From the NCBI GenBank assembly GCA_036517795.1, contig DATDTF010000011.1, positions 9,772-73,771 on the forward strand: a DNA stretch of 64,000 nucleotides, given 5' to 3'. Under the pieces are notes generated by a model that saw nothing but the letters and a program-made list of their open reading frames with translations, ran no database searches and had not been told where the DNA came from. Position numbers and translations under genes: made by a program. The stretch comes from Minisyncoccota bacterium. GTDB lineage: Bacteria > Patescibacteriota > Minisyncoccia > 2-02-FULL-40-12 > IGHO2-12-FULL-4. This document shows positions 5,486 through 61,470 of this stretch, piece by piece (positions within the stretch are counted from its first letter, which is position 1; every line of letters starts with the position of its first letter).

Positions 5486-5499
5486 ATTGATTGAAAGAT

Positions 5500-5530
5500 A
5501 ATCAATCCAAGGGCAGCCCTTGGATTGATT
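5500..5530. repeat. REP-like perfect palindrome (15 bp arms, AATCAATCCAAGGGC / GCCCTTGGATTGATT) upstream of the transposase
   Basis: Read directly from the sequence. It shares the CCAAGGGC/GCCCTTGG core with the two palindromes at 5713 and 6210. Confidence 0.7.
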
Positions 5531-5555
5531 GGTGTTTTGTTTTATACTTATTGTC

Positions 5556-6260
5556 ATGGAACGTAAAATTATCTTTTCACCAGGAGAGTACTATCATGTT
5601 TATAATCGTGGTGTTGAAAAACGTAAAATTTTTCTTGAGGATAGAGATTATAATCGTTTTTTAAAAATGCTTTTTTTGGCAAATGGGTCTAACCCAATTG
5701 TTTTTAAAACTGTCCAAGGGCTGCCCTTGGATAAACTTGAGCCAGGAGAAAGAGTGGTTGCTATTGGTGCTTTTGTTCTAATGCCCAACCATTTTCATAT
5801 TCTTGTAAAAGAAAGGGTGGCAGGTGGTTTAACAAACTTTATGCTGAAACTTACCACAGGATATGCTATGTATTTCAATAAAAAATATGAGAGAGTTGGT
5901 TCATTATTCCAGAGTAGGTTTAAGGCGGAACACGTTGACGATGACGACTATCTAAAATATTTATTTTCGTATATACATTTGAATCCAATTAAAATTATTG
6001 AGTCGTCTTGGAAAGAAACAGGGATAACGAACATTAAAAAAGCAGAAGTATTCCTCAATAACTACCGATATTCTAGTTACCCTGATTATGTAGCAGGGTA
6101 TAGGCCAGAAAAAAAGATTCTTAACCTGAAAGAGTTTCCAAATTATTTTGAAAATAAACATATTTTCGCCAACTTTCATAAGGAATGGTTGGTTTTAAAA
6201 GCCAACTATCATCAACTATCCAAGGGCTGCCCTTGGATAGTTGATGATTATAAAAAATAA
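5556..6260 (+). CDS. IS200/IS605-family (Y1 HUH) transposase, REP-associated tyrosine transposase (RayT)-like
   Basis: HUH motif MPNHFHILV. N-terminal GEYYHVYNRG. Catalytic-Tyr region FNKKYERVGSLFQSRF. Start trimmed to MERKII. Flanked by, and containing, REP-like hairpins. Confidence 0.7.
   Translation: MERKIIFSPGEYYHVYNRGVEKRKIFLEDRDYNRFLKMLFLANGSNPIVFKTVQGLPLDKLEPGERVVAIGAFVLMPNHFHILVKERVAGGLTNFMLKLTTGYAMYFNKKYERVGSLFQSRFKAEHVDDDDYLKYLFSYIHLNPIKIIESSWKETGITNIKKAEVFLNNYRYSSYPDYVAGYRPEKKILNLKEFPNYFENKHIFANFHKEWLVLKANYHQLSKGCPWIVDDYKK
5713..5731. repeat. REP-like palindrome inside the transposase CDS (TCCAAGGGC t GCCCTTGGA)
   Basis: Same core as the flanking palindromes. It encodes QGLPLD. 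Confidence 0.6.
6210..6246. repeat. REP-like palindrome (18 bp arms) at the transposase 3' end
   Basis: CATCAACTATCCAAGGGC t GCCCTTGGATAGTTGATG. It encodes the C-terminal LSKGCPWIVDD. Confidence 0.7.
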
Positions 6261-12915: not shown

Positions 12916-14233
12916 TCGTCCACCTCTCCTTTCTTAAAAATTCTTTTAGGGCCGGCAGAAGCTGCTCTTTTGTCTGAATAACAACGCCCAAAAAAGGATC
13001 TGTTTTTAGGGTAATCATGGTAATTTCAGGAGTTGAAACTTGTTGAGTGGAAAACTCTGACTTGATAGCAGACATCAGGCCAGAATCCGGTAGATTTTTG
13101 TTATATTTTTCCGACGGTTCAATTTCACCATAACCGAGCATATTTATTTTTTTGGCAAAAAGCTTTTTAATCTCTCCCATGGTCCGGTCATGATCAAAAT
13201 CCTCTCCGTCAGAAAAATGCCAGACATAGACATTGTATTGGCTGGTAGGGTATTCCTCCTCAACTAAACCATTAGCCAGCTCATAGGCTGTATAGCAATA
13301 AGTACCGCCACTTTCCTGGGTTTTGAAAAAAGTATCTTCATCAACTATCTTTGCTTGGGTATGATGGATAATAAAACGGATCTCTACGTGCTCATAAATT
13401 CTCTGTAAAAAGGTCACCAACCAAAACAACATTGACCTTGCCAGATATTTTTTTTGATCATACATGGAGCCTGAAACATCCATCATGGCAATGATTACCG
13501 CTTGCGATTGGTAACTGATATTAGGATCCACTTTCTCAAAACGCAAATCGTCTTTGGTAAAAACCGGAAAAGGCTCGACCCTTTCAGCTGTCACCTGAAA
13601 GTCGGGGTTACGAAGCATGGCCAAAGCATCACCCAAGTCACCTTGAGACTTCTTTAAAGCGTCAAAACAATTTAATTCCGACAAACCCGTCTCTTGGATT
13701 AGTGAATTCAAAAAGTTCCAAAATCTTTTCAAACCTTCCCTGACAGTAGCCCTGCTGTTAAGAAACGTCCAAGGACCAGACTTGACAATTCCCGTAATCT
13801 TATAGCCAAGTTCCAAAAGAATTGTCTTTAGCTGTTTTTCTTCAAGTTTGGGCAAACCCAAGTCCTCCAGCATAAGATCGATAAGCTCTTCCAGCTCAAC
13901 TTCAGTTTCAATAATATCCTGGCCGTGTTCGGAACCGGGCCTTCCACCAATAACATCCCCGGGCTCTCCTTCGCCTTGACCAATTCCAACGCCGTCACCC
14001 GTTTGACCGGGCCTGAATCTGGGTATCTGAAGACTTTTAACCGGTATCTTTATAATCTTGTTTCTTTTACCGGTTATGATGTTTTCGTTGGCAATAATAT
14101 GCGGAAGGTTGTTTTTTATGACCTCTTTTTGCTTATCTCTGTGACGCTTGGCGTCGGCCTTGCCTTGTTCAGAAACCATATCTGGTATAGTTATAGGCAT
14201 ATCCAATCTCCTTATTCGGTTTTCAAAATACAA
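12908..14233 (-). CDS. yhbH: YhbH/YeaH family protein (DUF444, vWA-like)
   Basis: 441 aa. MMDVSGSM vWA-like motif. Classic partner of PrkA. 8 nt overlap with spoVR. Confidence 0.7.
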   Translation of the reverse strand: MYFENRIRRLDMPITIPDMVSEQGKADAKRHRDKQKEVIKNNLPHIIANENIITGKRNKIIKIPVKSLQIPRFRPGQTGDGVGIGQGEGEPGDVIGGRPGSEHGQDIIETEVELEELIDLMLEDLGLPKLEEKQLKTILLELGYKITGIVKSGPWTFLNSRATVREGLKRFWNFLNSLIQETGLSELNCFDALKKSQGDLGDALAMLRNPDFQVTAERVEPFPVFTKDDLRFEKVDPNISYQSQAVIIAMMDVSGSMYDQKKYLARSMLFWLVTFLQRIYEHVEIRFIIHHTQAKIVDEDTFFKTQESGGTYCYTAYELANGLVEEEYPTSQYNVYVWHFSDGEDFDHDRTMGEIKKLFAKKINMLGYGEIEPSEKYNKNLPDSGLMSAIKSEFSTQQVSTPEITMITLKTDPFLGVVIQTKEQLLPALKEFLRKERWTNG

Positions 14234-16479: not shown

Positions 16480-18057
16480 ATGAACATAGACTATACTAAA
16501 TTAAGCAAATCTTTAGACCTTTCTGATAAAAAAGAAAGGTTTTTATATCGCCTTTTTGAGGTTTTGCCAGGCTTTTTGGCTTGGCTGACATTGTTTCTGA
16601 TTATCTTTTTATCTTTTGTTGCACCGGCTTTTACTGCCGTTTTTATCATATTATTTGACATCTATTGGCTTATCAAAACCGTCTATCTTTCTTTTCACCT
16701 AAGATACGCCTACAGAAAATTAAGACAAAATTTAACGATCGATTGGCTTGAGCGACTGGAAAAACTGCCAGTCACAGACTATAAATTACAGGAAGTTAAA
16801 TCTTGGCAGGACATCTATCACCTGATAATTTTGCCTCGTTACAAAGAGGGGGGAGAACTGGTTATGGCCTCCATTGAGAGCATACTAAACTCAGCTTACC
16901 CCAAAACAAAAATAATTTTAGTTCTGACTCAAGAGGCTAGAGCCGGCATTGAAGAAAACAAATTAGGCTACGAGTTGGAAAAAGAATATGGCAGCAATTT
17001 TTTTCAGTTCTTGGTTACCGAACACCCGGATAACCTGCAAGGTGAAATAACGGGAAAGGGCTCAAACGCAGCCTACGCCGGAAAAATTGCCAAAGAAAAA
17101 ATCATTGACGCCCTAGGAATCAAATATAATCATGTTATTGTCTCAAACTTTGATATTGACACAGTCGCTCCCAACCACTACTTTTCTCTTTTGACATATC
17201 TTTATCTTACCACCCAAGACTCCTTACATACCTCCTACCAACCCATCCCTCTCTACACTAACAACATCTGGGAAGCTCCGGCATTGGCCCGGGTAGTCGC
17301 TTTCTCTGCCACTTTCTGGCACACAATACAACAAGAAAGGCCGGAGAGACTAACCACATTTTCCAGCCACTCAATGCCTTTTCAGGCTTTAGTTGACGTT
17401 AATTTTTGGCAAACTAATATGGTCTCCGAGGACTCGAGAATTTTTTGGCAATGTTTCTTGAGATACAATGGCAACTACCGGGTTACACCTATGTTCTACC
17501 CTGTTTCTATGGATGCCAATGTTGCTCCGAGTTTTTGGCAAACAATGAAAAACATCTACAAACAACAGAGACGCTGGGGTTTCGGAGTAGAAAATGTGCC
17601 CTATTTCTTTTTCGGTTTTTATAAAAACAAACTGATACCTCTGAAAAAAAAGCTTTACTACATCTTTAATATTCTTGAGGGTTTCCATTCTTGGGCCACC
17701 AACGCGGTTATTATTTTCCTTCTTGGCTGGTTACCAGTAGTAGTGGGCGGCTCAAAATTCAATCAGTCTGTCTTGTCTCTAAATCTTCCTCAATTCACAA
17801 GGGTTATTATGAGCTTAGCTATGATTGGACTCATTTCTTCGGCTGTTTTGTCTGTTGTCCTTTTGCCTCCTCGGCCCCTACACTATCGACGTTTCAAGTA
17901 TCTATGGATGGTTTTGCAGTGGATATTATTCCCCATAACCACGATCATTTTAGGCGCCCTGCCGGGTTTGGAGGCTCAAACCAGACTGATGCTCGGAAAA
18001 TACCTAGGTTTTTGGGTTACTCCGAAAGTAAGCCGACGAAGTCTAAGGAACTCTTAG
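16480..18057 (+). CDS. processive family-2 glycosyltransferase (cellulose/chitin-synthase-like), polytopic membrane protein
   Basis: N- and C-terminal TM bundles flank a cytoplasmic GT2 domain. QRRWGFG (QxxRW) processivity motif. The C-terminal tail runs into a dispersed repeat. Confidence 0.55.
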   Translation: MNIDYTKLSKSLDLSDKKERFLYRLFEVLPGFLAWLTLFLIIFLSFVAPAFTAVFIILFDIYWLIKTVYLSFHLRYAYRKLRQNLTIDWLERLEKLPVTDYKLQEVKSWQDIYHLIILPRYKEGGELVMASIESILNSAYPKTKIILVLTQEARAGIEENKLGYELEKEYGSNFFQFLVTEHPDNLQGEITGKGSNAAYAGKIAKEKIIDALGIKYNHVIVSNFDIDTVAPNHYFSLLTYLYLTTQDSLHTSYQPIPLYTNNIWEAPALARVVAFSATFWHTIQQERPERLTTFSSHSMPFQALVDVNFWQTNMVSEDSRIFWQCFLRYNGNYRVTPMFYPVSMDANVAPSFWQTMKNIYKQQRRWGFGVENVPYFFFGFYKNKLIPLKKKLYYIFNILEGFHSWATNAVIIFLLGWLPVVVGGSKFNQSVLSLNLPQFTRVIMSLAMIGLISSAVLSVVLLPPRPLHYRRFKYLWMVLQWILFPITTIILGALPGLEAQTRLMLGKYLGFWVTPKVSRRSLRNS

Positions 18058-18130
18058 TCTGCCGAAGTTGCTCTGCCGACGTTTTACATCCGTAGTAGTC
18101 TGACAACCTCTTAAGTAAGCCGACGATACC
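18024..18130. repeat. dispersed intergenic repeat (family 2 copy)
   Basis: Reverse-complement match to segments of 22558..22730 (gtctgacaacctcttaagtaagccgacg vs cttacttaagaggttgtcagac). Contains GTTGCTCTGCCGACGTTTTA, which resembles the MITE 5' end. Confidence 0.6.
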
Positions 18131-20329
18131 CTACTCAAAATGCCTAATCTTCTGAAATTTAGCTAACTGATTTTTTAGAGCAGGATAACTTTTAAGATTT
18201 GGATCTTCCTTCAGTAAAAGCTTGGCTTCTAGCCGGGCTTTTTTTATTAGGTCTAAATCAGTCAAAGAAGCCATGGCTAAGTCAGGCAAGCCGGATTGTT
18301 TAGTACCGACAAATTCTCCCGGTCCGCGTAACAACAAATCTTGTTCAGCCAACTTGAAGCCGTCATCGGAAATCTCCAAAGCCCTTAGCCTCTTATTCTC
18401 AAAACGATTATTGCCGCCATTAACCAAAAAACAATACGACTGATGTTCCGCTCGCCCAACCCGGCCGCGAAACTGATGCAGTTGCGACAGTCCGAATCTT
18501 TCAGCATTCTCAATTAACATTACTGTAGCATTGGGAACATCCACTCCGACCTCAACAACCGAGGTGGATACCAAGATCTGATACTTTCCGTTTTTAAAAT
18601 CTTCCATTATTTTTTCCTTTTCTTTAGGCTTCATTTTTCCGTGAAGCATGGCAATCTTAAAATTAGGAAAAACTTTTTGTGAAAGTTTTTCATATTCGGT
18701 AGTGACGGCTTTGACTTCGGCCCACAAAATATTCATCTTGTTTTGTTGGGCAGAAGTTTTTACTGCTTCTTGCGGATTGCTAAGTTCGATGCGGGGACAT
18801 ATAACAAAAGTCTGCCGACCAGACAGAATTTCCTTTTCAACAAAACCGTAAACTTCGGCAGACTTATCTTTTGCAAAAACTTTGGTAATAATTTTCTTTC
18901 GGTCTTTCGGCTTTTCTTTAATTAAGGAAACGTCCAAGTCGCCGTATATAGTTAGCGCGAGTGTTCGTGGTATTGGCGTTGCAGTCATAGAGAGCAAATG
19001 TGGTGTCAAGGGTGCGGGGGATTGGGCGTCCCAGTGCCGATATTGCTTTGCCGGTATTTCTTCCCTTGTCCCTTGTCCCTTTACCAGTTGCATTCTCTGC
19101 TTTACACCAAAACGATGCTGTTCATCTATTATTATCAATCCCAAATTTTTAAATTTAACATCTTTTTGTATAACTGCGTGTGTGCCGACAACTATATCTA
19201 TCTCGCCATTTGAGATTTTCTTTTGCATTAAATTTTTAGAGATTTTTTCTTCAGTAACTTCGTCTATCGGCCACTGTTTTGCCTCACTTCCAGTCAGTAA
19301 ACCCACCCTGGTCCTTAATCTGCCAAGCAACGACTTTATGGTTGCATAATGCTGTTGCGCCAATATCTCCGTTGGTGCCATAAAAACCGTTTGAAAACCC
19401 GAGTTGGCGGTCTGACAGGCGGCAATAATCGCAACGATTGTCTTGCCTGAACCGACATCGCCATTTAATAGCCTATTCATAGGATAACTTCTGCCAAAAT
19501 CTTTCATAATCTCAAAAGCGCAAACCCTCTGATCATTAGTCAAAACAAACGGCAAGCTCCCGACAAACCCTTTTACCAACTCCGGTTTGAAAATTACCGA
19601 AGGCGCTTTAAGTTTGGAAAGACCGCGCCGACCCAAAAGAGACTTGATTTGAAACAAAAGCAATTCATCAAAGGCAACCCTTTTTCTGGCAACTCCAGCT
19701 TCCTCTAAAGATTCCGGAAAGTGAATTGTCTTTATTGCTAGGTCCAAGCTGGGAAAATTATATTTTTTTCTTACGTTTTCCGGCAGATGATCGGAAAACT
19801 TATCTGTAGCACCTAGCAAAGGTTTTATTAAAAAACGAAGGTATCTGGAGGAAATGCCCTCTGTCTCCGGATAGACAGGCACTAGTCTGCCGGTATGGAC
19901 CAAGTCAATCTTGGTCTCAAAAATTTTTTCATACGAAGGGCTGGAAAGATAAATTCCCCGCTTATCCAAAGCCACCTTACCGGATAAGCTGACGAGACTT
20001 CCTTCGACAAGAGAGTTTTCTATATATGGCTGATTAAACCAAACAGCTCTGGTCTGTTCATCACCGTCTTTTATGTGAGCCTCTGTTATGGACATCCGGC
20101 GGCGCCAAATATTAGTCGTTTTTATCTTCGCCACCTCGCCTATGATACTGATCACTTTGCCGACTTCTCCAACCTCACCCAGACCAACTGTTTGAGTGAA
20201 ATCTTCGTAACGGCTGGGAAAATGCCAGAGCAAATCTTTGACAGTTTTAATGCCCAGCCTTTTCAGTCTCGGCAAATTCTTAGGCCCAACTTTAGGCAAT
20301 TTTTCTATAGGAGTAAGCAAATCCAGCAT
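18131..20329 (-). CDS. recG: ATP-dependent DNA helicase RecG
   Basis: 732 aa. Walker A GDVGSGKT. DEQHRFGV. MTATPIPRTL. Carries an in-frame repeat-derived insertion (see findings). Confidence 0.85.
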   Translation of the reverse strand: MLDLLTPIEKLPKVGPKNLPRLKRLGIKTVKDLLWHFPSRYEDFTQTVGLGEVGEVGKVISIIGEVAKIKTTNIWRRRMSITEAHIKDGDEQTRAVWFNQPYIENSLVEGSLVSLSGKVALDKRGIYLSSPSYEKIFETKIDLVHTGRLVPVYPETEGISSRYLRFLIKPLLGATDKFSDHLPENVRKKYNFPSLDLAIKTIHFPESLEEAGVARKRVAFDELLLFQIKSLLGRRGLSKLKAPSVIFKPELVKGFVGSLPFVLTNDQRVCAFEIMKDFGRSYPMNRLLNGDVGSGKTIVAIIAACQTANSGFQTVFMAPTEILAQQHYATIKSLLGRLRTRVGLLTGSEAKQWPIDEVTEEKISKNLMQKKISNGEIDIVVGTHAVIQKDVKFKNLGLIIIDEQHRFGVKQRMQLVKGQGTREEIPAKQYRHWDAQSPAPLTPHLLSMTATPIPRTLALTIYGDLDVSLIKEKPKDRKKIITKVFAKDKSAEVYGFVEKEILSGRQTFVICPRIELSNPQEAVKTSAQQNKMNILWAEVKAVTTEYEKLSQKVFPNFKIAMLHGKMKPKEKEKIMEDFKNGKYQILVSTSVVEVGVDVPNATVMLIENAERFGLSQLHQFRGRVGRAEHQSYCFLVNGGNNRFENKRLRALEISDDGFKLAEQDLLLRGPGEFVGTKQSGLPDLAMASLTDLDLIKKARLEAKLLLKEDPNLKSYPALKNQLAKFQKIRHFE
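19025..19054. repeat. MITE-derived fragment in frame within recG
   Basis: ggcgtcccagtgccgatattgctttgccgg. Its reverse complement matches the MITE 3' end (caatatcggcactgggacgcc). It encodes KQYRHWDAQ, a roughly 16 aa extra segment between DEQHRFGV and MTATPIPRT. Confidence 0.6.
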
Positions 20330-22557: not shown

Positions 22558-22730
22558 AAAGAGATTGTCTAACTTCCATGTCGGTTACAATCTCGGTTTG
22601 CAACTTCGGAAGTTAAGAGGTTTGTGAACTTCTATGACTTACTTAAGAGGTTGTCAGACTTCTCTGGTTGCCTAACCTCGGTTTGCAATATCGGCAATTC
22701 AGAGACTTCAGACTTCGTTGGCTTACTTAC
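22558..22730. repeat. dispersed intergenic repeat (family 2, composite copy)
   Basis: Shares about 65 bp with 25925..25990. Has reverse-complement matches to 18024..18130. Contains caatatcgg. Confidence 0.6.
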
Positions 22731-25896: not shown

Positions 25897-25924
25897 ATCT
25901 TAATTTTTAACTTTTTCAATTAAA

Positions 25925-25990
25925 GACTGTCTAACTTCGACGGTCAAGATAACCTCGGTTTTCAACTTCGGAAGCTAAGAGGTTTCTTTT
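25925..25990. repeat. dispersed repeat (family 2 copy)
   Basis: tgtctaacttcgacggtcaag..cggttttcaacttcggaagctaagaggtttc is near-identical to part of 22558..22730. Confidence 0.6.
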
Positions 25991-26319
25991 ATTCGACGGG
26001 TTACGTTTTCTATTTTCGCCGCCCTTTCTTCTGTTTCGTCCAGGACAAAAAACAATTTGGGTACCGGACGCATTTGCAGTTTCTTGTTAAGTGTTTGTTG
26101 AAAAAAATATATGCTTCTGTTGATACTCTCCAGAGCCTGCCGGCCGGCGTCCAGAGGAAAAACAGAAACATAAACCCTAACGTGGTTTAAATCTTCAGAA
26201 ACAACCGCCCTGGTAACTGTAACCAGAGCTTCAACATCAAGATCAAGTTCGCGATGCAAAATCTTGCCCACTTCATCTCTAATCAAATCATTTATTTTTT
26301 CCCGACGATGAGAGTCCAT
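25975..26319 (-). CDS. rbfA: ribosome-binding factor A
   Basis: 114 aa immediately downstream of infB. RbfA-like N-terminus. Confidence 0.7.
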   Translation of the reverse strand: MDSHRREKINDLIRDEVGKILHRELDLDVEALVTVTRAVVSEDLNHVRVYVSVFPLDAGRQALESINRSIYFFQQTLNKKLQMRPVPKLFFVLDETEERAAKIENVTRRIKETS

Positions 26320-26321
26320 GA

Positions 26322-27893
26322 TTATAGAGATTTTTTAATTCTTTCTTCTTCATAAACCTCCAGGATGTCTCCTTCTTTAACAAACATATTTGGAGCGATT
26401 GGCTGGCCGAAATCAACTCTTAAACCGGCTTCCAAACCTTCTGCAACTTCTTCCACATCCGCTTTTTGCTGTTGAAGCTGTCCGAGTTTTCCTTTCGTTA
26501 TTACATTACTGTTTCTAGTCACCTCAATCAATGCGCCTCTCTTGATTTTACCAGAAATCACTTTTCCTCCCACAACCTGATTTTTAGGGTCCTTTTTGAA
26601 TAAGGCCAACACCTTAAGCCTACCCAAGGAAATTCTATTAATTTCCGGATCTAAAAGGTCGGACATCTTTCTTTTTACCTCCTCCACCAGCTCATAAATT
26701 ATGTCAAAAGATTCTACCACTATCCCATCCCTTTCCGCCATTTGACGGAGAGAACTACTGGCCGGAACATGAAATCCCACCACCATAGACTTTGTCGCTA
26801 TGGCTTTTTTGATGTCACCTTCCGAGATGTTGCCAATGCCAAAATCCACAACTTTGTATCCGACTTCTTCTGATTTTATTGTTCTCAAAACTTGGTCAAT
26901 TGCCTCAAGAGAGCTTGAGACGTCAGCTTTAACTATTAAATTCAGACTTTTATTTTTACTCTTTTCCGGCCCGCTTGCTTGAATAAAAATTACCGGCCGG
27001 CCAAGAATTGAATTCTCTTTAGCTAACTTCAAAGCTTCTTCTCTGGAATCACTTCTCTTCACAACTTCGCCCAAAACCGGAGAGCTGGCCCAACCCAAAA
27101 CTACCGCCGGCTGTGACGGACCAGCCTTAGTCAAATTCCTACCTAAGAAATCCGCCATTGATTTAATTCTAACTGCTTCCGGGCCGGTTATAATCCAGTC
27201 ATTTGTATGAAAGAACCCGCTTTTGACTAAAATGGTAGCCACATGACCGCGTCGATTATCCAAATAGGAATCAATTATAACTCCCGTAGCAGAAGCATCA
27301 TCTGATTTAAGCTCTTCCAATTCGGCTACTAAAAGAATCATCTCCAACAAAGAATCTATACCTTGACCGGTTTTCGCTGAAACTTCTATTACCGGCGTCT
27401 TGCCGCCCCACTCTTCTATGAAAACATTGTTTTCTGAAAGTTCCTGCTTAACCTTCTGCACATTAGCGTTTTCTTTGTCTACTTTATTTATGGCGACAAT
27501 AAAAGGCGTCTTAGTCTCTTCAATAATTTTGATGGCTTCCTTTGTCTGAGGTTTTACACCCTCATCGGCGGCCACAACTAAAATTGCCACGTCAGCCACA
27601 TTAGCACCTCTGGAGCGTATGGCTGAAAAAGCCTCATGACCGGGAGTGTCCAGAAAAGTTATGGTGCGCAAGCTCGGCAGTGCAATATCGGAGGTTGGTT
27701 GGTTGTCTTTAGTTGACACTTCTACCTGATAAGCACCGATGTGCTGGGTAATCCCACCTGCTTCTCCTTCGGCAATTTTGGTTTTACGAATGTAATCCAA
27801 AATTTTAGTCTTACCATGGTCAACATGTCCCAAAACAACCACAATTGGTGGTCTGGTTTGAAAATTTACCTTTTTTTCCTGTGTTTCTGCCAT
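26322..27893 (-). CDS. infB: translation initiation factor IF-2 (short form)
   Basis: G-domain motifs [16 protein letters not shown] and NKVD. Beta-barrel domains. Carries an in-frame repeat insertion before DTPGH. Confidence 0.9.
   Translation of the reverse strand: [523 protein letters not shown]
27669..27702. repeat. MITE 5'-end fragment in frame within infB
   Basis: Minus strand reads caaccaacctccgatattgcactgccgagct and encodes [11 protein letters not shown], absent from canonical IF-2 between GAYxVE and ITFLDTPGH. Confidence 0.65.
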
Positions 27894-33530: not shown

Positions 33531-33645
33531 TTAAAATTTCAATTGAAAAATATCACAAAAGTGATAGAATGGCAACCGACGGCGTGAAAACTCGGCAAAG
33601 AAAAATATCGGCAGATAAGAGATTTGTGGATTTCGTCAGCTTACT

Positions 33646-35276: not shown

Positions 35277-35368
35277 CAACATGAGTTTATATTTATCAAG
35301 AATAACTAGGCTTGGGCCTATAGCACAGTGGTAATGCGCCGCATTTTCACCCCGTTAGAAATGCCTCT

Positions 35369-35443
35369 GGGCCAGTAGCTCAGCGGCAGAGCACTGCATT
35401 CGCATTGCAGGGGTCGGGGGTTCAATTCCCCCCTGGTCCACCA
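35369..35443 (+). tRNA. tRNA-Ala(CGC) with encoded CCA
   Basis: GGGCCAG acceptor with G3:U70. D-arm TAGCTCAGCGGCAGAGCA. Anticodon loop TTCGCAT. T-arm GGGGGTTCAATTCCCCC. Flanked by a 15 bp inverted repeat. Confidence 0.8.
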
Positions 35444-35610
35444 GCATTTCTAACGGGGCGCAATTGCAATAGAGATGGGGGATTCTCCCTAATTTTTTAA
35501 CGCTCGTTATGCCTTCGGCATAAACACTCGCTAAAATTAGGAGTTAAAGTGAAGTAGTTCATTTTAACTGCCCCTAGGTCCACCAAGAGAAATTAAAGAT
35601 TAAAAAATCA

Positions 35611-39856: not shown

Positions 39857-41833
39857 ATGCCTAGTGGTCTTTTTGAAGGTTTAAACGAAAAACAATTAGA
39901 AGCAATACAGACCACGGAAGGTCCTGTTTTGGTTATTGCCGCCGCCGGCAGCGGTAAAACCAAGGTTCTGACTCACCGAATTGCCCACCTCATTCAGCGA
40001 GGGATAAAACCAGAAAACATACTGGCGGTCACTTTCACAAATAAAGCGGCGGGTGAGATGAGAGAGCGAGTTCGCAATTTACTCAAAAACTCTTCTGTTT
40101 TACCGCTACTTGGCACATTCCATTCAATATCAGCAAGGTTGTTAAGAAACGAGCTCGGGAAACTTGATTTGCCTTATGACTCTAATTTCGTGATTTACGA
40201 CACTGAAGACCAGCTGGGCGTTATCAAAAAGGTTATGGAGGAGTTGGAAATTGATAGTAAGAAAACAAATCCTCGGGCTATCCTTTCCAGAATATCGGAA
40301 GCGAAAACAAACTTAGCCGGACCAGAAGAGTATGTGAAATCCGCAAAAGATTTTTTCTCAAAAACAGTCGCCAGGATTTATCCGCTTTACCAAAAAAATC
40401 TTGAAACCAGCAACGCGATGGACTTTGATGATCTTCTTTTTTTGACAGTGAAAATGCTTAAACAAGAGAAAAACATACTGGAAAAATATCAAAACCTCTT
40501 TAGATATATCCTGGTTGATGAATACCAAGACACAAACAAACCACAATATCTTTTTCTGAAAATGCTGGCCCAAAAGCATAAAAATATTATGGCGGTGGGA
40601 GACGACTATCAATCAATATATTTATTCCGCCAGGCTGACATCCGTAATATTTTGAGTTTTGAAAAAGACTATCCGGAAGCTAAAATTGTTTTTTTGGAGC
40701 AAAACTATCGTTCCACCCAAAATATTCTGGCTGCCGCCCAGAACATAATCTCAAATAATAAGTTCCAGCGACATAAAAATCTCTGGACTGAAAATCAGGA
40801 AGGGGAAAAAATACTGCTCGCCGAACTCAGCAACGAAAGGGAAGAAGGCGGATTCATAACCGACGAAATAAAGAAGGGTCTGAAAACCGGCGCTGATTTG
40901 AACGACTTTTGCATCCTGTACCGAACGCACGCCCAGTCGCGTGCAATTGAAGAAGCCATGTTAAAAGCCGGTTTGCCTTACAAAATCATCGGCGGTTTAA
41001 AATTCTATGAGAGAAAAGAAGTTAAAGACATTTTAGCTTATTTGAGACTTCTGCTTAACCCGACAGACAACTTCAGTTTAGAAAGAATACACAACGTGCC
41101 AAGCAGGGGAGTAGGCAAAAAAACTTTTGAGAAGATATTGGAAACACAAAAACAGAAATCTTCCAAAAGCGTTTTTGAACTTTTCAAAGACCATAGAGAA
41201 GAATTAGACAAAAAGGCTTTATCCGGTTTAGCTTCGCTGAGCAAAACCATGAACAGCTTGGAAGAAAAACTGGACGAATTTTACCTCTCAAAACTTATAA
41301 AAAAACTTCTTCAGGAGATTGATTACCAAAAATTTCTTCAGGAAAAAACCGTTGACAGCGAGTCCCGCTGGGAAAACGTAAAAGAGCTTCTGACAGTTAC
41401 GGCAAAATATGACAGTTTGAAATCCCGTGAATCTCTTCCGATTTTTCTGGAAGAAGTTTCACTTATACAGGAAACGGATCAAATCAAAAACCAAGAAAAA
41501 AATGTAACCCTCATGACGATGCACGCTTCCAAAGGTTTGGAATTTCCTACCGTTTTTTTAGCCGGCATGGAAGAAGGACTATTCCCTCATCCCAGGTCGA
41601 CTCTTGATCCGGTTGAATTGGAAGAAGAGAGAAGGCTATGCTACGTCGGAATCACCAGAGCCAAAGAAAAACTTTACTTGACTCATTGTCAAAACCGCAT
41701 GGTTTATGGCTCTTCACAATTCAACCCAATCTCAAGATTTGTTTCTGAAATACCAGAGGACTTTGTCTCCGAAAACGCAAAAAAACCATTTAGGCGAGAT
41801 TTTAATTATGAGGACTTCATAGATTATGATTAA
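39857..41833 (+). CDS. pcrA: ATP-dependent DNA helicase PcrA/UvrD
   Basis: LNEKQLEAIQ..GPVLVIAAAGSGKT Walker A. DEYQDTN motif. 658 aa. Confidence 0.85.
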   Translation: MPSGLFEGLNEKQLEAIQTTEGPVLVIAAAGSGKTKVLTHRIAHLIQRGIKPENILAVTFTNKAAGEMRERVRNLLKNSSVLPLLGTFHSISARLLRNELGKLDLPYDSNFVIYDTEDQLGVIKKVMEELEIDSKKTNPRAILSRISEAKTNLAGPEEYVKSAKDFFSKTVARIYPLYQKNLETSNAMDFDDLLFLTVKMLKQEKNILEKYQNLFRYILVDEYQDTNKPQYLFLKMLAQKHKNIMAVGDDYQSIYLFRQADIRNILSFEKDYPEAKIVFLEQNYRSTQNILAAAQNIISNNKFQRHKNLWTENQEGEKILLAELSNEREEGGFITDEIKKGLKTGADLNDFCILYRTHAQSRAIEEAMLKAGLPYKIIGGLKFYERKEVKDILAYLRLLLNPTDNFSLERIHNVPSRGVGKKTFEKILETQKQKSSKSVFELFKDHREELDKKALSGLASLSKTMNSLEEKLDEFYLSKLIKKLLQEIDYQKFLQEKTVDSESRWENVKELLTVTAKYDSLKSRESLPIFLEEVSLIQETDQIKNQEKNVTLMTMHASKGLEFPTVFLAGMEEGLFPHPRSTLDPVELEEERRLCYVGITRAKEKLYLTHCQNRMVYGSSQFNPISRFVSEIPEDFVSENAKKPFRRDFNYEDFIDYD

Positions 41834-42758
41834 AGATAAAATAGTGAATAAAAAATATCAACCATCTTCCGACATTGCACTGCCGAGCTTTAGCGCCGTC
41901 AGCAAAAGTAAACCAAAAAGGGACTTCGCCAAAGGCGCGGAATGTCAAAGACAAGCTCAACATCGGCATCGGGACGCCAAAAAACTAGGACAAAACTTTC
42001 TAAAAAACACCGGAATACTTAAATCCATCGTTGGGATGGCTGAAATTTCAGCCGACGATATTGTTTTGGAGGTAGGCGCCGGCACGGGTCTGCTCACAGA
42101 GAAGCTAGCCGAAACCGGAGCCAAAATAATTGCTGTTGAAAAAGACCGGAACTTGATTCCGATTCTGGAAACCAAGTTTAAAAATCAAAAAAATGTTACA
42201 ATAATTGAAGGCGATATATTAAGGTTCGACCTTAATCTGACCAAGGTCGAACCTTGGAAATACAAGGTAGTGGGAAACATTCCGTATTATCTAACTTCGC
42301 ATTTGATAAGAAAAGTTTTAGAAGATTGGCCCACACCAAAACTAATTTTGTTCATGTTACAAAAAGAGGTGGCTCAAAGGATAGTTGCCAAACCTCCGAA
42401 AATGAACTTGCTTGCCTTATCTGTCCAGCTTTATGCGGACGCCCAGATAATGAGGAGCGTCTCAAAGAAAAATTTCTGGCCAGAACCAAAAGTTGATTCA
42501 GCTTTAATAAAAATACTGCCTAAAGACCGAGACGCAAAAGAAAAAAATGACATTGAAAAGATTTTGAAATTAGCTCGTTTGGCTTTTAGCGGTAAAAGAA
42601 AACAAATACTAAACAGTCTTTCAACCGGATTAAAAATTCCAAAGGAAAAACTTATCGGTACACTTCAGGAAGCCGGCATTGACAGCAAAAGACGCCCCGA
42701 GTCTCTAGAAATCAGCGAATGGTTAAAACTAAACCAAACTTTATCTTCGCAGTTTTAG
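41826..42758 (+). CDS. rsmA: 16S rRNA (adenine1518/1519-N6)-dimethyltransferase RsmA/KsgA
   Basis: KKLGQNFL start-of-family motif. SAM-binding VLEVGAGTGLLT. The roughly 50 aa N-terminal extension is encoded by a MITE copy. No in-frame ATG lies between the element and the KsgA core. Confidence 0.75.
   Translation: MIKDKIVNKKYQPSSDIALPSFSAVSKSKPKRDFAKGAECQRQAQHRHRDAKKLGQNFLKNTGILKSIVGMAEISADDIVLEVGAGTGLLTEKLAETGAKIIAVEKDRNLIPILETKFKNQKNVTIIEGDILRFDLNLTKVEPWKYKVVGNIPYYLTSHLIRKVLEDWPTPKLILFMLQKEVAQRIVAKPPKMNLLALSVQLYADAQIMRSVSKKNFWPEPKVDSALIKILPKDRDAKEKNDIEKILKLARLAFSGKRKQILNSLSTGLKIPKEKLIGTLQEAGIDSKRRPESLEISEWLKLNQTLSSQF
41868..41976. repeat. MITE-like element, full-length copy (about 109 bp) inside the rsmA 5' region
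   Basis: 5' tccgacattgcactgccgagctttagc ... aaaagggacttcgccaaaggcg ... caacatcggcatcgggacg 3'. Terminal inverted repeats CCGAYATTG/CAAYATCGG. Confidence 0.7.
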
Positions 42759-48807: not shown

Positions 48808-49299
48808 ATGAGAAATATCTACAGTCCAATTGAAGTTGATGACGACTCTTTACTGCTTGACGACGAAAAGCACGAGTTGTTTTACTCAAAAATTAATGCC
48901 TTGCCTCAAAACATTCAAGACTTGCTTTTTTCTTTGGACACAGAGGATAAATTAAAAAATATAGCTGTTCAAACCAAACTAAACCAGAATCAATCCATCG
49001 AGCTGACTCGCTTGGTTAGGGATGTGTTGATAAATGAAATCTATCTTGGAGACATAATCAAAGAGTCACAAAAACGCCTTGTTGTTAGTGAAGAATTTGC
49101 CCGTGAAATTGCCAACCAAATTGTTTCTGTAATTCTTGCTCCTGCCCTTGAAGATATTAAAAAAATTCACGTTGAGAAGTTCGGACGTCCCGCTGCCGAC
49201 GTTGCCACGCCTTCTAACAGCAAGTCACAAATCCCAGAAAGAGACAAGCCCCAGATAATAAACCCTGGCAATATAGTAAATCTTAGAAACAAAAATTAG
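48808..49299 (+). CDS. hypothetical protein (163 aa) in T4SS-like operon
   Basis: ORF only. 6 nt after the upstream stop. Confidence 0.3.
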   Translation: MRNIYSPIEVDDDSLLLDDEKHELFYSKINALPQNIQDLLFSLDTEDKLKNIAVQTKLNQNQSIELTRLVRDVLINEIYLGDIIKESQKRLVVSEEFAREIANQIVSVILAPALEDIKKIHVEKFGRPAADVATPSNSKSQIPERDKPQIINPGNIVNLRNKN

Positions 49300-52660: not shown

Positions 52661-52686
52661 TAAAGTAGAGTCAGTGGTAAGAAACT

Positions 52687-52795
52687 CAATTTAATTCCGA
52701 TATTGCTCTGCCGAGCTTTAGCAAGTGTCAGCTGGGATAAAGTCAAAAGGGACTTTGCCAAAGGCGGAGTGTGTCAAAGACAAGAACAATATCGG
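52687..52795. repeat. MITE-like element, full-length copy (intergenic)
   Basis: ccgatattgctctgccgagctttagc...aaaagggactttgccaaaggcgg...caatatcggcattgggacg. About 80% identical to the 41868 copy. Confidence 0.7.
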
Positions 52796-52805
52796 CATTG
52801 GGACG

Positions 52806-53900
52806 ATGAACCAAAAAACAATTCTTACAATTCTAATACTTGTGCTGGCTGGTATAGTAACCTTTTTGGGAGGCTACCTTTTGGCAAACAAAGGCACCGG
52901 ACAAACTGCCAACATAGCCGGACTGAACCGTTTTTCAAATTTCTCCGCCAATAAGCCCGAATCTGAAAAAACCACTACAGTAAAGTTAAACCGCTTGAGC
53001 AGTGTCAAGGTTGTGAGTCCGGCCATTTCTGAAAACGGCAGAAATATTAACTACTTTGAAAAGGGCACGGGAAAAATTTTCTCCAGTGACTTTGCCGGAC
53101 AAAGCATTAATATTATCAACGGCAACATTAAAGAAGACGTTACCGGAGCTGTCTGGTCAAAAAACGGTTGGCAAGCAGTTGTCGCAAGAAAAACTTCCCG
53201 CGGACAAGTTTTTAGCCTGTCTGACTTAAAAATTGACATATTAACAGATCTAAATGAAAAGATGTCAGGAATAACCTGGTCTCCGGACGGACAAAAAATA
53301 GCTTACTTGTTTTTTGACTCTTCAGCAGAAGAAGGAAACATCAGTATTGCAAATCCCGATGGCTCATCCTTTAAAAACGTTCTGCCCACCAGAAATAGCC
53401 AATTAAAAATATCTTGGCCCAGTAAGGATAGCCTTGCTTTCTATAGTCCGAGTGGGGTAGACCGAAGTTTGTTCCTGCTAAATATGGAAACTGGGGAGCT
53501 GGAGAAAATTTTGGAGTCAGCCAACAACTTAAAAACTCTCTGGTCTCCAGATGGCTTAAATTTAATTTATTCTCACAGCAAAGAGGACGGTAGTGTAGTG
53601 ACAAACTTGCTTCAACTTAAAGAAGATAACCGTTCTGTTTTAGATCTCAGCCTGCAGACCAATGCCGATAAATGCGTTTGGAGTTTAAACTCACAAAAAT
53701 TTTATTGCGGAGGAACTAAAGCCGACGGCGCGGAGGAGGGTCTTTATGAATTTGACCTAACTAAAAAGGAATTTGGTTTGGTGTTTCAGTCCAGTTCTGT
53801 CGACCAAATTGAAATTGAAAAACCTTTCTTATCACCAGTAGAAAATTTCATCTTTTTTACAAACGGCTACGATCAGTATCTCTTCTCTATTAGCCTTTAA
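52806..53900 (+). CDS. secreted PD40/TolB-like beta-propeller repeat protein
   Basis: N-terminal TM/signal (MNQKTILTILILVLAGIV). Repeated WSPDGxxIAY / WSPDGLNLIYS motifs. Start trimmed to exclude repeat-encoded residues. Confidence 0.5.
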   Translation: MNQKTILTILILVLAGIVTFLGGYLLANKGTGQTANIAGLNRFSNFSANKPESEKTTTVKLNRLSSVKVVSPAISENGRNINYFEKGTGKIFSSDFAGQSINIINGNIKEDVTGAVWSKNGWQAVVARKTSRGQVFSLSDLKIDILTDLNEKMSGITWSPDGQKIAYLFFDSSAEEGNISIANPDGSSFKNVLPTRNSQLKISWPSKDSLAFYSPSGVDRSLFLLNMETGELEKILESANNLKTLWSPDGLNLIYSHSKEDGSVVTNLLQLKEDNRSVLDLSLQTNADKCVWSLNSQKFYCGGTKADGAEEGLYEFDLTKKEFGLVFQSSSVDQIEIEKPFLSPVENFIFFTNGYDQYLFSISL

Positions 53901-55199: not shown

Positions 55200-55200
55200 A

Positions 55201-55458
55201 TTAAATCAAGTCTTGGCCGCCCAAAGGATGGCACTTGCTTATTCTTTTTAAACTTAAAATTGAGCCCTTAATCAAACCCTGCTCTTGAATAGCTTCAGTA
55301 AAATAATCAGAGCAGGTAGGATAAAATCGGCAGCTTGTCGGAAAAAAAAGATGAGGAGACACTGCCAACAAATAAGAAAAGTTTCTTTTATAAACTCTTG
55401 TCACTTCTTGCAATATCTTAACGAACAGTTTGTTGTTTAAAATTTTATTAGACATCAC
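55201..55458 (-). CDS. yidD: membrane protein insertion efficiency factor YidD
   Basis: [10 protein letters not shown]...CHPLGGQD motif. Confidence 0.7.
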
Positions 55459-55467
55459 TTAACAGAG

Positions 55468-55809
55468 CTAGACAATATTGGCTTTTCTAAAAATTTCTAA
55501 TAGACTCTCTTTGGCTTCCGAAAATTTATTTTCTTTGAGGCTTGATTGGATGACGACAACGACATCAACATGTACTTTACAAAAAGTAAAAACTGACGCC
55601 AAAACACTAAAAACAATTCTTTTAACCTTATTCCGCAAAACTGCGTTTTGAATAAATTTTGATGGAACTATTACAGCTCCCCGGCAAAACGAAAAACTGT
55701 TTTTAGATACTTTCACCAGCAATAAATGACTTCTAAAACTTCTGCCTGCTTTAAAAATCCGATCTAAATCTTTTTTGCTCTTGATTCTGTGCTTTTTAGA
55801 TAGAGCCAT
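55468..55809 (-). CDS. rnpA: ribonuclease P protein component
   Basis: 113 aa, basic. Located between rpmH and yidD. Confidence 0.75.
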   Translation of the reverse strand: MALSKKHRIKSKKDLDRIFKAGRSFRSHLLLVKVSKNSFSFCRGAVIVPSKFIQNAVLRNKVKRIVFSVLASVFTFCKVHVDVVVVIQSSLKENKFSEAKESLLEIFRKANIV

Positions 55810-55821
55810 GTCATTTTCAGC

Positions 55822-55959
55822 TTAAACAGTAAGCTTGTGCCGGCCTTTGCGTCGGCGTCTTAACAGCACTTTTCGCCCTGATTTTTTCTGTGATCTTTTC
55901 AAAAATCCGTGCTTGTTTTTCCTCTTTTTGGTTTTAGGACGATATAATGTTGATTTCAT
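55822..55959 (-). CDS. rpmH: 50S ribosomal protein L34
   Basis: Not in the ORF track (45 aa). Manual translation gives MKSTLYRPKTKKRKNKHGFLKRSQKKSGRKVLLRRRRKGRHKLTV. Confidence 0.85.
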   Translation of the reverse strand: MKSTLYRPKTKKRKNKHGFLKRSQKKSGRKVLLRRRRKGRHKLTV

Positions 55960-55981
55960 ATAAGTAATATATACTATTCTG

Positions 55982-56092
55982 CCGATATTGCAATTTGCCG
56001 AGTTTTCACACTACCAGCTGGGATTAGGTAATTAGTGACCGCTGACAACGTCGGGCTCGTGAAATTCAAAAAGTTCAATATCGGCATTGGGG
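55982..56092. repeat. MITE-like element, full-length copy between rpmH and dnaA
   Basis: ccgatattgcaatttgccgag...cagctggga...ttcaatatcggcattgggg. Same terminal inverted repeats and central CAGCTGGGA as the 52687 copy. Confidence 0.65.
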
Positions 56093-56206
56093 CGGTCATC
56101 CACTTTTTATAAACAATTTATAAACTAAAGCACTCTGTTTTTAAGTCTGCCTGTTTATCTTAGAATTAGGGAAGAATAAATAATGAGCAACGATAATTAA
56201 TTAACT

Positions 56207-56243
56207 CCCGACATTGACACTGCCGAACTTTAGCACCGTCAAC
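56207..56243. repeat. MITE 5'-half solo copy
   Basis: cccgacattgacactgccgaactttagcaccgtcaac. Confidence 0.5.
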
Positions 56244-56271
56244 TAGAAGAAAGTAATTAGGAAAAACAAAT

Positions 56272-57636
56272 ATGACCAAAGAAGAATTATGGAAAGCTGT
56301 TTTGGGAGAGATGGAGCTTTCTCTTTCCAAAGCCAACTTTACCACCTGGTTTAAAAACACTTCCATATTAGCCAATGAGGGGGTTTTGGTCATAGTCGGA
56401 GTCCCTAACGGATTCATCAAAGAATGGTTAGAAAACAAATTCCATAAACAGATACTGACTTCTATACAAACTTTTTCTCCGGAAATTAGAGAAATTAAAT
56501 ACACCATCGGCAACAGTTTACCCCAATCAACTATCAAAAAGGATTTTTCTCAATTCATTACAGAACGGGTGTTTGAAAACAAACAACCTGCCGATATTAA
56601 TCCCCAAACGAATTTAAACAAAAAATATTCTTTTGACTCTTTTATCGTCGGTTCTCACAATGAGTTGGCTCATGCCGCAAGCTCGGCTGTAGCCAAAAAT
56701 CTCGGTAAGGCTTATAACCCTCTGTTTATTTACGGTGGAGTCGGTTTAGGAAAAACTCATTTATTACAAGCTACCGGCAACAAGATTCTGGAAGACGACC
56801 CGACCAAAAAAGTCCTTTATATTCCTTCAGAAAGAATTACGGCTGAAATTGTTGAGTCTGTAAGAAATAAAAATGTTGAAGAACTTAAAAGTAGGTATGC
56901 AAAACTGGACATGCTTATTGTTGACGATATTCAGTTCATAGCCGGAAAAGAAAAAACTCAAGATATCTTTTTTGCAACCTTTAATGAGCTGTATGGGAAG
57001 AACAAGCAGATCATCTTATCATCAGATAGGCCGCCTAAAGCAATACCTGCATTGGAAGAAAGACTTAGATCCCGTTTTGAAGGGGGAATGATTGCCGATA
57101 TAAACATACCCGACTTTGAAACGAGACTGGCTATTTTGAAGCTAAAAACTAAACAAAAGGATATTATTTTAGATGAAAATGTCCTGGGTTACATAGCAAC
57201 AAATATACAAAAAAATATAAGAGAACTGGAAGGCGCTTTAAACAGAATTATTGCTGTAAGCCAGATTTATAACAAAACTCTGGATGTTAAAGAGGTTAAA
57301 AAACTGCTGGCGACTTACTTGAGTACACCCTATAAAAAAACTACACCTCAATTGATTTTAAAGTCAGTTTCTGACTTCTACAATATTTCGCCAAGCGATT
57401 TAATAAAAAGAAGCCGCAAGAAAGAGGTGGTAAGACCCAGACAGATTGCCATGTATTTATTGAGAGAAGAAACCAAATCGTCTTTTCCGGAAATCGGTCA
57501 GAAGTTAGGAGGTAGAGACCACTCCACAGTAATTCATGCTTATGAAAAAGTAAAAACAGAAGAAGAAACGGATGAAATTACAAAACAAGAGATTGTTTTA
57601 ATCAAAGAAAGAATATATCAATCCTTTGATAAATAA
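56272..57636 (+). CDS. dnaA: chromosomal replication initiator DnaA
   Basis: AAA+ Walker A GGVGLGKTHLL. DnaA N-terminus. C-terminal DNA-binding domain (RPRQIAMYL..GGRDHSTV). Confidence 0.9.
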   Translation: MTKEELWKAVLGEMELSLSKANFTTWFKNTSILANEGVLVIVGVPNGFIKEWLENKFHKQILTSIQTFSPEIREIKYTIGNSLPQSTIKKDFSQFITERVFENKQPADINPQTNLNKKYSFDSFIVGSHNELAHAASSAVAKNLGKAYNPLFIYGGVGLGKTHLLQATGNKILEDDPTKKVLYIPSERITAEIVESVRNKNVEELKSRYAKLDMLIVDDIQFIAGKEKTQDIFFATFNELYGKNKQIILSSDRPPKAIPALEERLRSRFEGGMIADINIPDFETRLAILKLKTKQKDIILDENVLGYIATNIQKNIRELEGALNRIIAVSQIYNKTLDVKEVKKLLATYLSTPYKKTTPQLILKSVSDFYNISPSDLIKRSRKKEVVRPRQIAMYLLREETKSSFPEIGQKLGGRDHSTVIHAYEKVKTEEETDEITKQEIVLIKERIYQSFDK

Positions 57637-61403: not shown

Positions 61404-61470
61404 CAACCAACTTCCGATATTGCGCTGCCGAACTTTTGCGCTTTGGAAGTTAGGTAGCCAGTTAGATTTA
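61404..61470. repeat. composite dispersed repeat (MITE 5' end plus family-2 segment)
   Basis: caaccaacttccgatattgcgctgccgaacttttgcg followed by ctttggaagttaggtagcc. Confidence 0.5.

Follow-up and report, generated by a model that had tools for sequence, protein, structure and literature searches.

The recG gene located on a 64-kb stretch of contig DATDTF010000011.1 (referred to as the window) codes for an ATP-dependent DNA helicase in which the linker between helicase motifs II and III contains a segment that most related proteins lack. This raises the question of where the segment originates and whether it matters for RecG. From the comparisons described below we consider it likely that the segment is the decayed 3'-terminal fragment of a small, non-coding dispersed repeat which became fixed in frame in recG, is carried as a passenger and was spread by recombination. 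The repeat family appears to behave like a MITE (miniature inverted-repeat transposable element) or a Rickettsia palindromic element (RPE). Proteins identical to products encoded in the window bear the names Candidatus Paceibacterota or Harrisonbacteria (Parcubacteria, Candidate Phyla Radiation (CPR); uncultured), and the window is AT-rich with a GC content of ~41%.

An in-frame insertion derived from a dispersed repeat

The product of the recG open reading frame (ORF) is 100% identical to a protein annotated at NCBI as 'ATP-dependent DNA helicase RecG' (Candidatus Paceibacterota), which is found on 20 contigs from several sources. On this ground an assembly artefact was rejected as the origin of the extra segment. 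The protein belongs to the RecG class by its wedge domain, its superfamily 2 (SF2) helicase motifs and its full-length similarity to a RecG of solved structure. The Pfam domains RecG_wedge, DEAD, Helicase_C and RecG_dom3_C were detected, the protein is complete and has the wedge and all SF2 motifs, and comparison with RecG of Thermotoga maritima (1gm5) yielded a phmmer E value of 2e-136. Motif II (DEQHRFG) occupies residues 402-408 and motif III (MTATPIPRT) starts at residue 448.

Translation of the minus-strand ORF gives ...DEQHRFGVKQRMQLVKGQGTREEIPAKQYRHWDAQSPAPLTPHLLSMTATPIPRT... in this region. A preliminary description of the locus had reported an in-frame repeat insertion between motif II and MTATPIPRT at positions 19025-19054, where the plus strand reads ggcgtcccagtgccgatattgctttgccgg. 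These letters and their translation within RecG were found as quoted and the insertion between DEQH and TAT is real; its extent, however, is not 30 nt but 60 nt, the quoted stretch lying in the middle of the block (Table 1). The protein is read locally as VKQRMQLVKGQ-GTREEIPAKQYRHWDAQSPA-PLTPHLLS, with junction peptides such as ...IPAKQYR and HWDAQSPAPLTPHLLSMTATPIPR. The closest genes without the insert (related RecGs carry P numbers throughout) read KNQ/ELTPHLLS (P0003; 77% amino acid identity over aligned codons) and KNQ/ATTPHLLS (P0004) at this site. The linker exceeds that of Escherichia coli RecG (9wm0) by 17 residues, where ~16 had been estimated before, and that of T. maritima RecG (1gm5) by 20. 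GC content of the insert is 58% as compared to 41.6% in the rest of recG, a value reached by 1% of the other 60-nt windows of the gene.

To compare the insert with the repeat, a hidden Markov model (HMM) was used that had been built from 21 full-length copies from three genomes, with recG copies excluded. Its 3' half aligned significantly with the insert (Table 1), as had been claimed from the letters alone. The best-preserved core comprises the 3' inverted-repeat arm plus the terminal box, and its best single-copy match is a copy in the metagenome-assembled genome (MAG) CAYILQ01. Within the window, the 21-mer CAATATCGGCACTGGGACGCC of the insert also matches positions 41958 and 52787 with three mismatches each, where the two best full copies have their 3' ends, and it had no match in 100 shuffles. 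The plus strand at the insert resembles the 5' end of the repeat as well (E=0.097) because the repeat arms are inverted repeats; the assignment to the 3' end follows from the GGGACG box and the longer alignment. An intein or mini-intein was rejected as the nature of the segment, given that the insert consists of 20 residues followed by P and has no splicing residues, while inteins comprise at least ~130 residues with splicing blocks. A scan of the recG insert for promoters and terminators found nothing meaningful, and the RNA fold of the recG fragment is unremarkable (z=+0.9).

The repeat family and its copies in coding regions

Full copies of the repeat are ~130 nt long, non-coding, and have inverted repeats of 12-13 nt which pair as a terminal stem. 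The arms CTGCCGAYATTGC ... GCAAYNTCGGCAS are invariant in the 21 aligned full copies, and conserved bases extend beyond them, for ~20 nt on the outer side of the 5' arm and for 8 nt on that of the 3' arm, so that the arms are in fact subterminal. The alignment further revealed YGGGACG as a 3' box and, in the middle, at least four modules that are unrelated and differ between subfamilies. Invariant arms combined with interchangeable middles would fit protein-recognised ends of a non-autonomous mobile element. The 3' unit GCAAYNTCGGCACYGGGACG can recur every 21 nt, and tandem arrays with this spacing (GGCAAYNTCGGCACYGGGACG) were found at loci L003, L005, L009 and L012.

In seven of the 21 full copies the 3' end of the repeat (..GGCACTGGGACG) directly abuts a downstream ATG. 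These copies include those at rplX in CAYILQ01 and in the Yanofskybacteria MAG MGKD01 (two genera), at rpsK and at the gene starting at window position 52806 (junction at 52800-52808; loci L001, L018, L007, L019 and L006), and they leave no Shine-Dalgarno-like spacer between element and start codon. All intergenic copies examined are co-oriented with the downstream gene. A search of Rfam (gathering score and E<=1) returned no family for the repeat, and the terminal stem showed no covariation (seven predicted pairs, no compensatory change). RNA folds of single copies had z values mostly between -0.7 and -2.7, and -4.4 was reached only in a copy with an extra internal hairpin. Neither a promoter and terminator scan of a full copy nor a blastn comparison of a full copy with phage genomes gave a meaningful hit. 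The element as translated at the N-terminus of RsmA (46 residues) had no candidate in a word-index search and none at E<=0.001 in a phmmer search of 1.84 billion representatives; in both cases the query is too short to inform on prevalence.

The window contains about ten copies or fragments, three of them full and ~7 partial, and several lie in frame in conserved genes. In RsmA a whole copy (~43 residues) is translated ahead of the RrnaAD methyltransferase domain, which starts at residue 49. The N-terminal peptide QAQHRHRDAKK, previously attributed to rsmA, is a real example; the 310-residue form of the protein is the one annotated as RsmA at NCBI. A companion peptide, RQEQYRHWDD, had been assigned to an ORF at 52703; this reading did not hold, as the frame is a stop-to-stop stretch of 96 codons across an intergenic copy, and the real gene starts at ATG 52806 in another frame. 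It encodes a membrane-anchored beta-propeller protein of 364 residues which is on record at NCBI/UniRef. The initiation factor IF2 carries an insert of 14 residues between GAYQVE and ITFLDTPGH that is absent from IF2 of the P0003 genome, the closest available orthologue.

In a scan for the 5' motif that covered one genome per species, the motif occurred many times in CAYILQ01 and MGKD01, and nhmmer retrieved dozens of copies from them, some in tandem arrays. In CAYILQ01, in-frame hosts are NrdJ (~240 nt, corresponding to 1.7 copies), SecD, PBP2, a sigma-region-4/HARE-HTH protein and a TPR protein. For SecD and PBP2 the Pfam domains could be placed, and in both proteins the copies are situated between domains. 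Across relatives the family is present in three different loops of RecG itself. In addition to the motif II-III linker, P0002 has a 5' module (..PTSDVALPRFS..) in loop 2 after QWPTDE and an antisense 3' half in loop 3 before LWAEVKAV (nhmmer E=2.4e-10), and P0009 and P0047 have 3' units in loop 3 (..RHWD/VWAEVKAV). Translation of the 3' unit gives QYRHWD in recG and N(F/L)G(S/T)GT in NrdJ. Since the reading frame of this DNA varies with the host, the conserved entity is DNA and not peptide. The recurrence of the signature peptides and DNA in frame in conserved genes (IF2, RsmA, NrdJ, SecD, PBP2 and three RecG loops) supports the earlier proposal of a genome-wide phenomenon resembling RPEs. Presence/absence polymorphism between related genomes was seen for the recG insert, for the IF2 insert and for the P0059/P0101 pair.

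Distribution of the insert among related RecG proteins

The linker was compared in 117 related RecGs with locatable motifs. It measures 19 residues in 53 and 19-22 residues in 74 of them, and the insert described here is confined to four, namely the window gene, P0002 (GARDANIGKEHRRWDAQSPA), P0011 (RDANIGKEPRHWDAQSPA) and P0059 (TQGQYRHGDAQSPA). Conservation of linker length and sequence among relatives, which would have spoken against an insertion, was thus not observed. On these alignments the short linker is ancestral. An ancestral long linker that was lost elsewhere was rejected, because the outgroups and 74 of the 117 proteins have short linkers and because the insert DNA is too similar between distant genes. 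In a neighbour-joining tree built without the linker, the insert-bearing genes were distributed over three clades, and each of these has a sister that lacks the insert. In one, the window gene groups with P0002, and the insert-free pair P0003 and P0004 is their sister, while P0011 and P0059 belong to two other clades, P0059 being placed next to insert-free P0101 (93% amino acid and 87% nucleotide identity). The insert is not a private, recent hit in this genome; the near-identical insert in three other RecG lineages points to a partly decayed, laterally shared fragment.

At the DNA level, the window gene and P0011 are identical at all 27 positions of CGG CAC TGG GAC GCC CAA TCC CCC GCA, compared with 63% nucleotide identity and 40% identity at third positions gene-wide, and P0002 and P0011 are 92-97% identical across the insert. 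The flanks follow the same trend. In codons 409-419 and 440-455, identity between the window gene and P0011 is 82% and 81%, respectively, as opposed to 48% and 62% between the window gene and P0003, which reverses the gene-wide order. Conversely, P0059 and P0101 share only 37% and 62% in these flanks and 86-89% on either side. These patterns are read most simply as an exchange of a recG segment of ~140 nt (the insert plus ~80 nt of flank) between lineages through homologous recombination.

Compensating -1/+1 shifts (EEIPAKQY versus DANIGKEH) set the window gene apart from P0002 within the insert, and the window version is nearer to the family consensus. Both features suggest slippage or gene conversion with other genomic copies, and no selection on the N-terminal part of the insert peptide. 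Apart from the insert, P0059 and P0101 differ in two further short blocks of low identity (alignment columns ~680-700 and ~820-830), which suggests frequent mosaic recombination in recG of Paceibacteria.

Predicted structure of the extended linker

An AlphaFold2 model of RecG based on an alignment of 75 sequences had a mean predicted local distance difference test (pLDDT) score of 82 and matched 1gm5 in Foldseek with a TM score of 0.69-0.70. In the model a helix (residues 409-417) is followed by coil (418-443) and a strand (444-449), and pLDDT is below 50 at residues 422-438. The gap opposite the insert lies between a helix and a strand in the alignments with 1gm5 and 9wm0. The insert probably forms a disordered, solvent-exposed loop of 20 residues in a structurally permissive segment, in agreement with the solvent-exposed loop that had been anticipated. 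In the RecA-like fold of SF2 helicases, functional motifs are located at the C-terminal ends of strands, and a loop leading from helix to strand lies on the opposite edge. By this topology, the insert loop would be on the side of RecA-like domain 1 facing away from the ATP cleft.

A second loop of the window RecG with pLDDT below 50 precedes LWAEVKAV (positions 18743-18784; residues 516-529), and P0003 has an insert of 25 residues (MNPVRERPRRERVASATSGRLFSNR) in the corresponding loop.

Alternative explanations

If the insert is a repeat fragment as proposed, it would be transcribed and translated together with recG as a loop of 20 residues, tolerated as a passenger and not serving as a functional module; its peptide is not conserved, P0002 reading part of the DNA frame-shifted. 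The site would survive through structural permissiveness. The insert probably arose once or a few times and may then have moved among Paceibacteria lineages within the ~140-nt recG segment, with local reshaping by slippage or by gene conversion with other genomic copies. Several observations weigh against this scenario or limit it. No obvious target-site duplication is seen at recG (window versus P0003) or infB (window versus L025), these pairs being too diverged for exact junctions. No transposase or autonomous partner turned up in the 64 kb and in the fragments of other genomes, although a systematic transposase search was not made. Mobility of the repeat is, for these reasons, deduced from its distribution alone. 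The 12-nt tail CAATCCCCCGCA was not found in free repeat copies. In a metagenome scan, unit plus tail (GGGACGCCCAATCCCCCGC) occurred in recG contexts only (P0011 and P0059), other matches being chance matches in high-GC DNA, and a weak likeness to the tail exists in the NrdJ copy of CAYILQ01 (L012; for P0011, 27/31 across unit and tail). Alignment of the upstream third of the insert with the family is loose (posterior 0.4-0.7) and part of the HMM alignment falls on native codons, its outer ~17 nt (19073-19089) encoding QLVKGQ of recG. Disorder and surface exposure of the insert are predictions, the flank comparisons comprise 11 and 16 codons only, and the DNA identity across lineages could also reflect selection on a nucleic-acid signal in place of recent transfer.

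The last point leads to the idea that the conserved 3' unit functions as a signal in DNA or RNA, for instance as a protein-binding site or an RNA signal for translation or processing, and that selection has kept the copy in recG. We regard this as improbable. Synonymous sites are indeed frozen between the window gene and P0011, all nine third positions of the identical stretch being shared, and the unit TCGGCACYGGGACG is nearly invariant across at least three genomes whose RecGs are ~60% identical; yet recent lateral transfer or gene conversion accounts equally well for this pattern, and most RecGs do without the unit. The spacing of 21 nt corresponds to about two helical turns, and the copies that abut start codons and share the orientation of the downstream gene would suit such a role. 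Against it stand the lack of an Rfam match, of covariation and of a promoter-like site in the repeat, the ordinary fold of the recG fragment, and units that lie antisense inside genes (loop 3 of P0002, PBP2 and window positions 49178-49224). A more specific form of the idea, in which a conserved Paceibacteria protein or the ribosome reads the unit as a cis-acting signal and the copies in recG, infB and rsmA are live internal sites, is similarly improbable; we keep it in view as a minority reading because of the 21-nt arrays and the co-oriented copies next to ATG codons. Similarly, the repeat could have transposed independently into a preferred recG site in at least three lineages, with no recombination between recG genes. 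This is unlikely, even though repeated insertion into recG does occur, as the family reached three different loops in different lineages, and even though the native site AAG GGA CAA contains GGGAC, the pentamer of the unit's terminal box, which might provide microhomology. The left boundary of the insert shows slippage variants of 6-7 nt and a 7-nt slippage repeat, GGGACAA. All four inserts, however, have the common 12-nt tail, which no free copy has, and this makes independent transposition the weaker alternative to recombinational spread. Moreover, the flanks are more alike among insert-bearing genes than gene-wide relationships predict, and it is precisely in a patch surrounding the insert that P0059 departs from the sister with which it is 87% identical. 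That the loop is an adaptive interaction surface of RecG whose likeness to the repeat arose by chance or convergence is very improbable: the peptide ..RHWDAQSPA.. is common to the four RecGs and the ORF is intact, but the insert matches a non-coding repeat significantly at the DNA level, sister genes read the N-terminal half of its peptide in shifted frames, this DNA is read in other frames in other genes, the insert is predicted to be disordered, and the closest relatives of every carrier lack it.

Repeat copies and other elements in the window and in the RecG loop

Coordinates of recG, of its insert and of the other copies in the window are compiled in Table 1. Of the copies outside recG, the one at 49178-49224 may be another in-frame insert, in opposite orientation. 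The tRNA synthetase gene downstream of the 5' module was recognised by Pfam (tRNA-synt_1b; 61563-62771), as was dnaA (56272-57636). The spacer of ~1 kb upstream of dnaA contains two copies, and the minimum of the cumulative GC skew falls at this gene; positions 55200-57636 probably represent the region of the replication origin.

Table 1. Location of recG, its insert and further copies of the repeat in the 64-kb window.
Feature	Position	Strand	Evidence
recG, 732 aa	18131-20329	minus	Intact ORF, all helicase motifs
In-frame insertion in recG, 60 nt, read as GTREEIPAKQYRHWDAQSPA (G420-A439)	19013-19072	minus	Gap versus P0003, P0004, P0101, 1gm5 and 9wm0
Stretch aligned to repeat HMM positions 67-139 (3' half)	19019-19089	minus	nhmmer E=1.2e-6, 23.3 bits
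Best-preserved core GGCAAAGCAATATCGGCACTGGGACGC (3' inverted-repeat arm GCAATATCGGCA + terminal box CTGGGACG)	19026-19052	minus	26/27 bases identical to copy L011:5746-5879
12-nt tail CAATCCCCCGCA (QSPA)	19013-19024	minus	Kept in all four insert-bearing recG genes
Weak 5'-module-like fragment, spacer just downstream of recG stop	18054-18093	plus	nhmmer E=0.012; direct-repeat family D1
42-nt in-frame insert DNQPTSDIALPSLR in IF2 G domain (infB 26322-27893), repeat 5' module	27666-27707	minus	nhmmer E=2.9e-5 (27664-27696)
Fragment of repeat 5' part, intergenic, adjoining tRNA-Arg	33571-33618	minus	nhmmer E=4e-4; inverted-repeat pair I7
Full copy, in frame near RsmA N-terminus	41854-41981	plus	nhmmer E=6e-26; ORF 41826-42758
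3' unit, antisense, in C-terminal tail of hypothetical ORF 48808-49299 (..KFGRPAADVATPS..)	49178-49224	minus	nhmmer E=1.3e-5
Full copy, intergenic	52678-52813	plus	nhmmer E=1e-31; 3' GGGACG abuts ATG 52806
Full copy upstream of dnaA	55962-56102	plus	nhmmer E=5e-21
5' half copy just upstream of dnaA start	56192-56261	plus	nhmmer E=1.9e-5
Only the 5' module; lies upstream of a gene for a class I (Trp/Tyr) tRNA synthetase	61405-61439	plus	nhmmer E=5.8e-5

The motif II-III loop of RecG is a general landing pad and insertion hot spot. Some insertion is present in 43 of the 117 RecGs, and linkers of 23-46 residues with several unrelated types of insert occur in 39 (inspected loci include L043:11258-11344 and L044:10481-10591). 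In P0032, P0056, P0078 and P0110 the loop contains an in-frame insert of 164-177 residues with a PF13366 domain (PD-(D/E)XK, 'GxxExxY'; locus L045:4063-6822). It is flanked by the inverted repeats CGCGGAA/TTCCGCG, read as ..INAELTRKSAE.. and ..NSASGPQSSA..., and looks like a mobile nuclease cassette that is translated inside a helicase. P0099 and P0048 have flank-like sequences without the PF13366 domain. The linker of P0018 has a 7-nt tandem repeat, ACTAC[TA][CA], with a second copy inside another gene on the same contig (L043, ~13857-13890), and that of P0009 contains an AT-rich hairpin element.

Other repetitive elements were noted in the window. Direct and inverted copies of a second repeat family (..CCTCGGTTTGCAACTTCGGAAGTTAAGAGGTTT..), which is unrelated to the first, lie at 22562-22709, 25924-26004 and 18076-18119, one of them in the spacer just downstream of recG. 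A perfect GC-rich palindrome, ATCCAAGGGCTGCCCTTGGAT, is present in three copies within ~750 nt (5498-5526, 5708-5733 and 6214-6245) that overlap ORF 5529-6260. Finally, an inverted repeat of 35 nt (80% complementary; 35341-35467) brackets tRNA-Ala(CGC) at 35369-35443 and may be a processing stem or another small element.

Relation to known elements and implications

RPEs are short palindromic repeats which often lie in frame in housekeeping genes and are compatible with the fold of the host protein (PMC10969869, summarising Ogata et al. 2000). The family described here shares with them a dispersed, multi-copy repeat of ~100-150 bp with palindromic (inverted-repeat) ends, in-frame copies in unrelated conserved housekeeping genes, insertion sites that are permissive by prediction, and a host with a small genome. 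It differs in several respects. The host belongs to the Paceibacteria (CPR) and not to Rickettsia, so that the likeness is one of behaviour and no membership in an RPE family is claimed. The recG copy is not a complete element but a 3' fragment of 60 nt; the middle of the repeat is modular, and its 3' unit of 21 nt forms tandem arrays; a start codon follows immediately on the end of many intergenic copies; and the family is common to several genera, with the recG insert appearing to spread by recombination of the host gene. We know of no sequence relationship between RPEs and the Paceibacteria repeat.

Bacterial MITEs with intragenic copies include ERIC/IRU, Correia/NEMIS and BOX (PMC10969869). 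The present repeat resembles these in being non-autonomous and mostly intergenic, in having terminal inverted repeats, in being co-transcribed with neighbours and in occasional in-frame fusions with ORFs. In contrast to them, its in-gene fraction seems much higher (at least four of ~10 copies in the window), and no target-site duplication or parent insertion sequence was identified for it. Repetitive extragenic palindromic sequences and bacterial interspersed mosaic elements (REP/BIME) were rejected as a match, as these are 20-40 nt long and strictly extragenic, unlike the ~130-nt repeat with its many intragenic copies. Intervening sequences of rRNA carry nuclease cassettes of the PF13366 kind. 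The cassettes in other Paceibacteria that resemble those of 23S rRNA intervening sequences share with the repeat insert the same RecG loop and the in-frame position, and have inverted-repeat flanks; they differ from it in that the repeat insert has no ORF and is unrelated in sequence. A literature search for palindromic elements, in-frame insertions and MITEs in CPR/Patescibacteria retrieved no relevant report, which, given its incomplete coverage, is absence of evidence only.

Proteins and rRNAs of CPR/Patescibacteria are known for unexplained extra segments. Repeat fragments fixed in frame in loops of core proteins of replication, repair and translation (RecG, IF2, RsmA, NrdJ, SecD and PBP2) provide a concrete source for some of them. 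One particular RecG loop serves as landing pad for several unrelated elements, the largest being a whole nuclease-domain cassette, and an insert would travel from species to species along with a short stretch of its host gene. Such inserts inflate the apparent divergence of proteins, can lead both alignment-based phylogenies and structure predictions of CPR marker genes astray, and create repeat-induced assembly breaks. Should the minority reading of the 3' unit as a cis-acting signal be true, the copies would mark internal translation or processing sites, or protein-binding sites, in a lineage in which the signals for gene expression have hardly been studied. Nothing in current understanding is overturned by these findings; they would extend the RPE paradigm to a second, very distant group of bacteria with reduced genomes.

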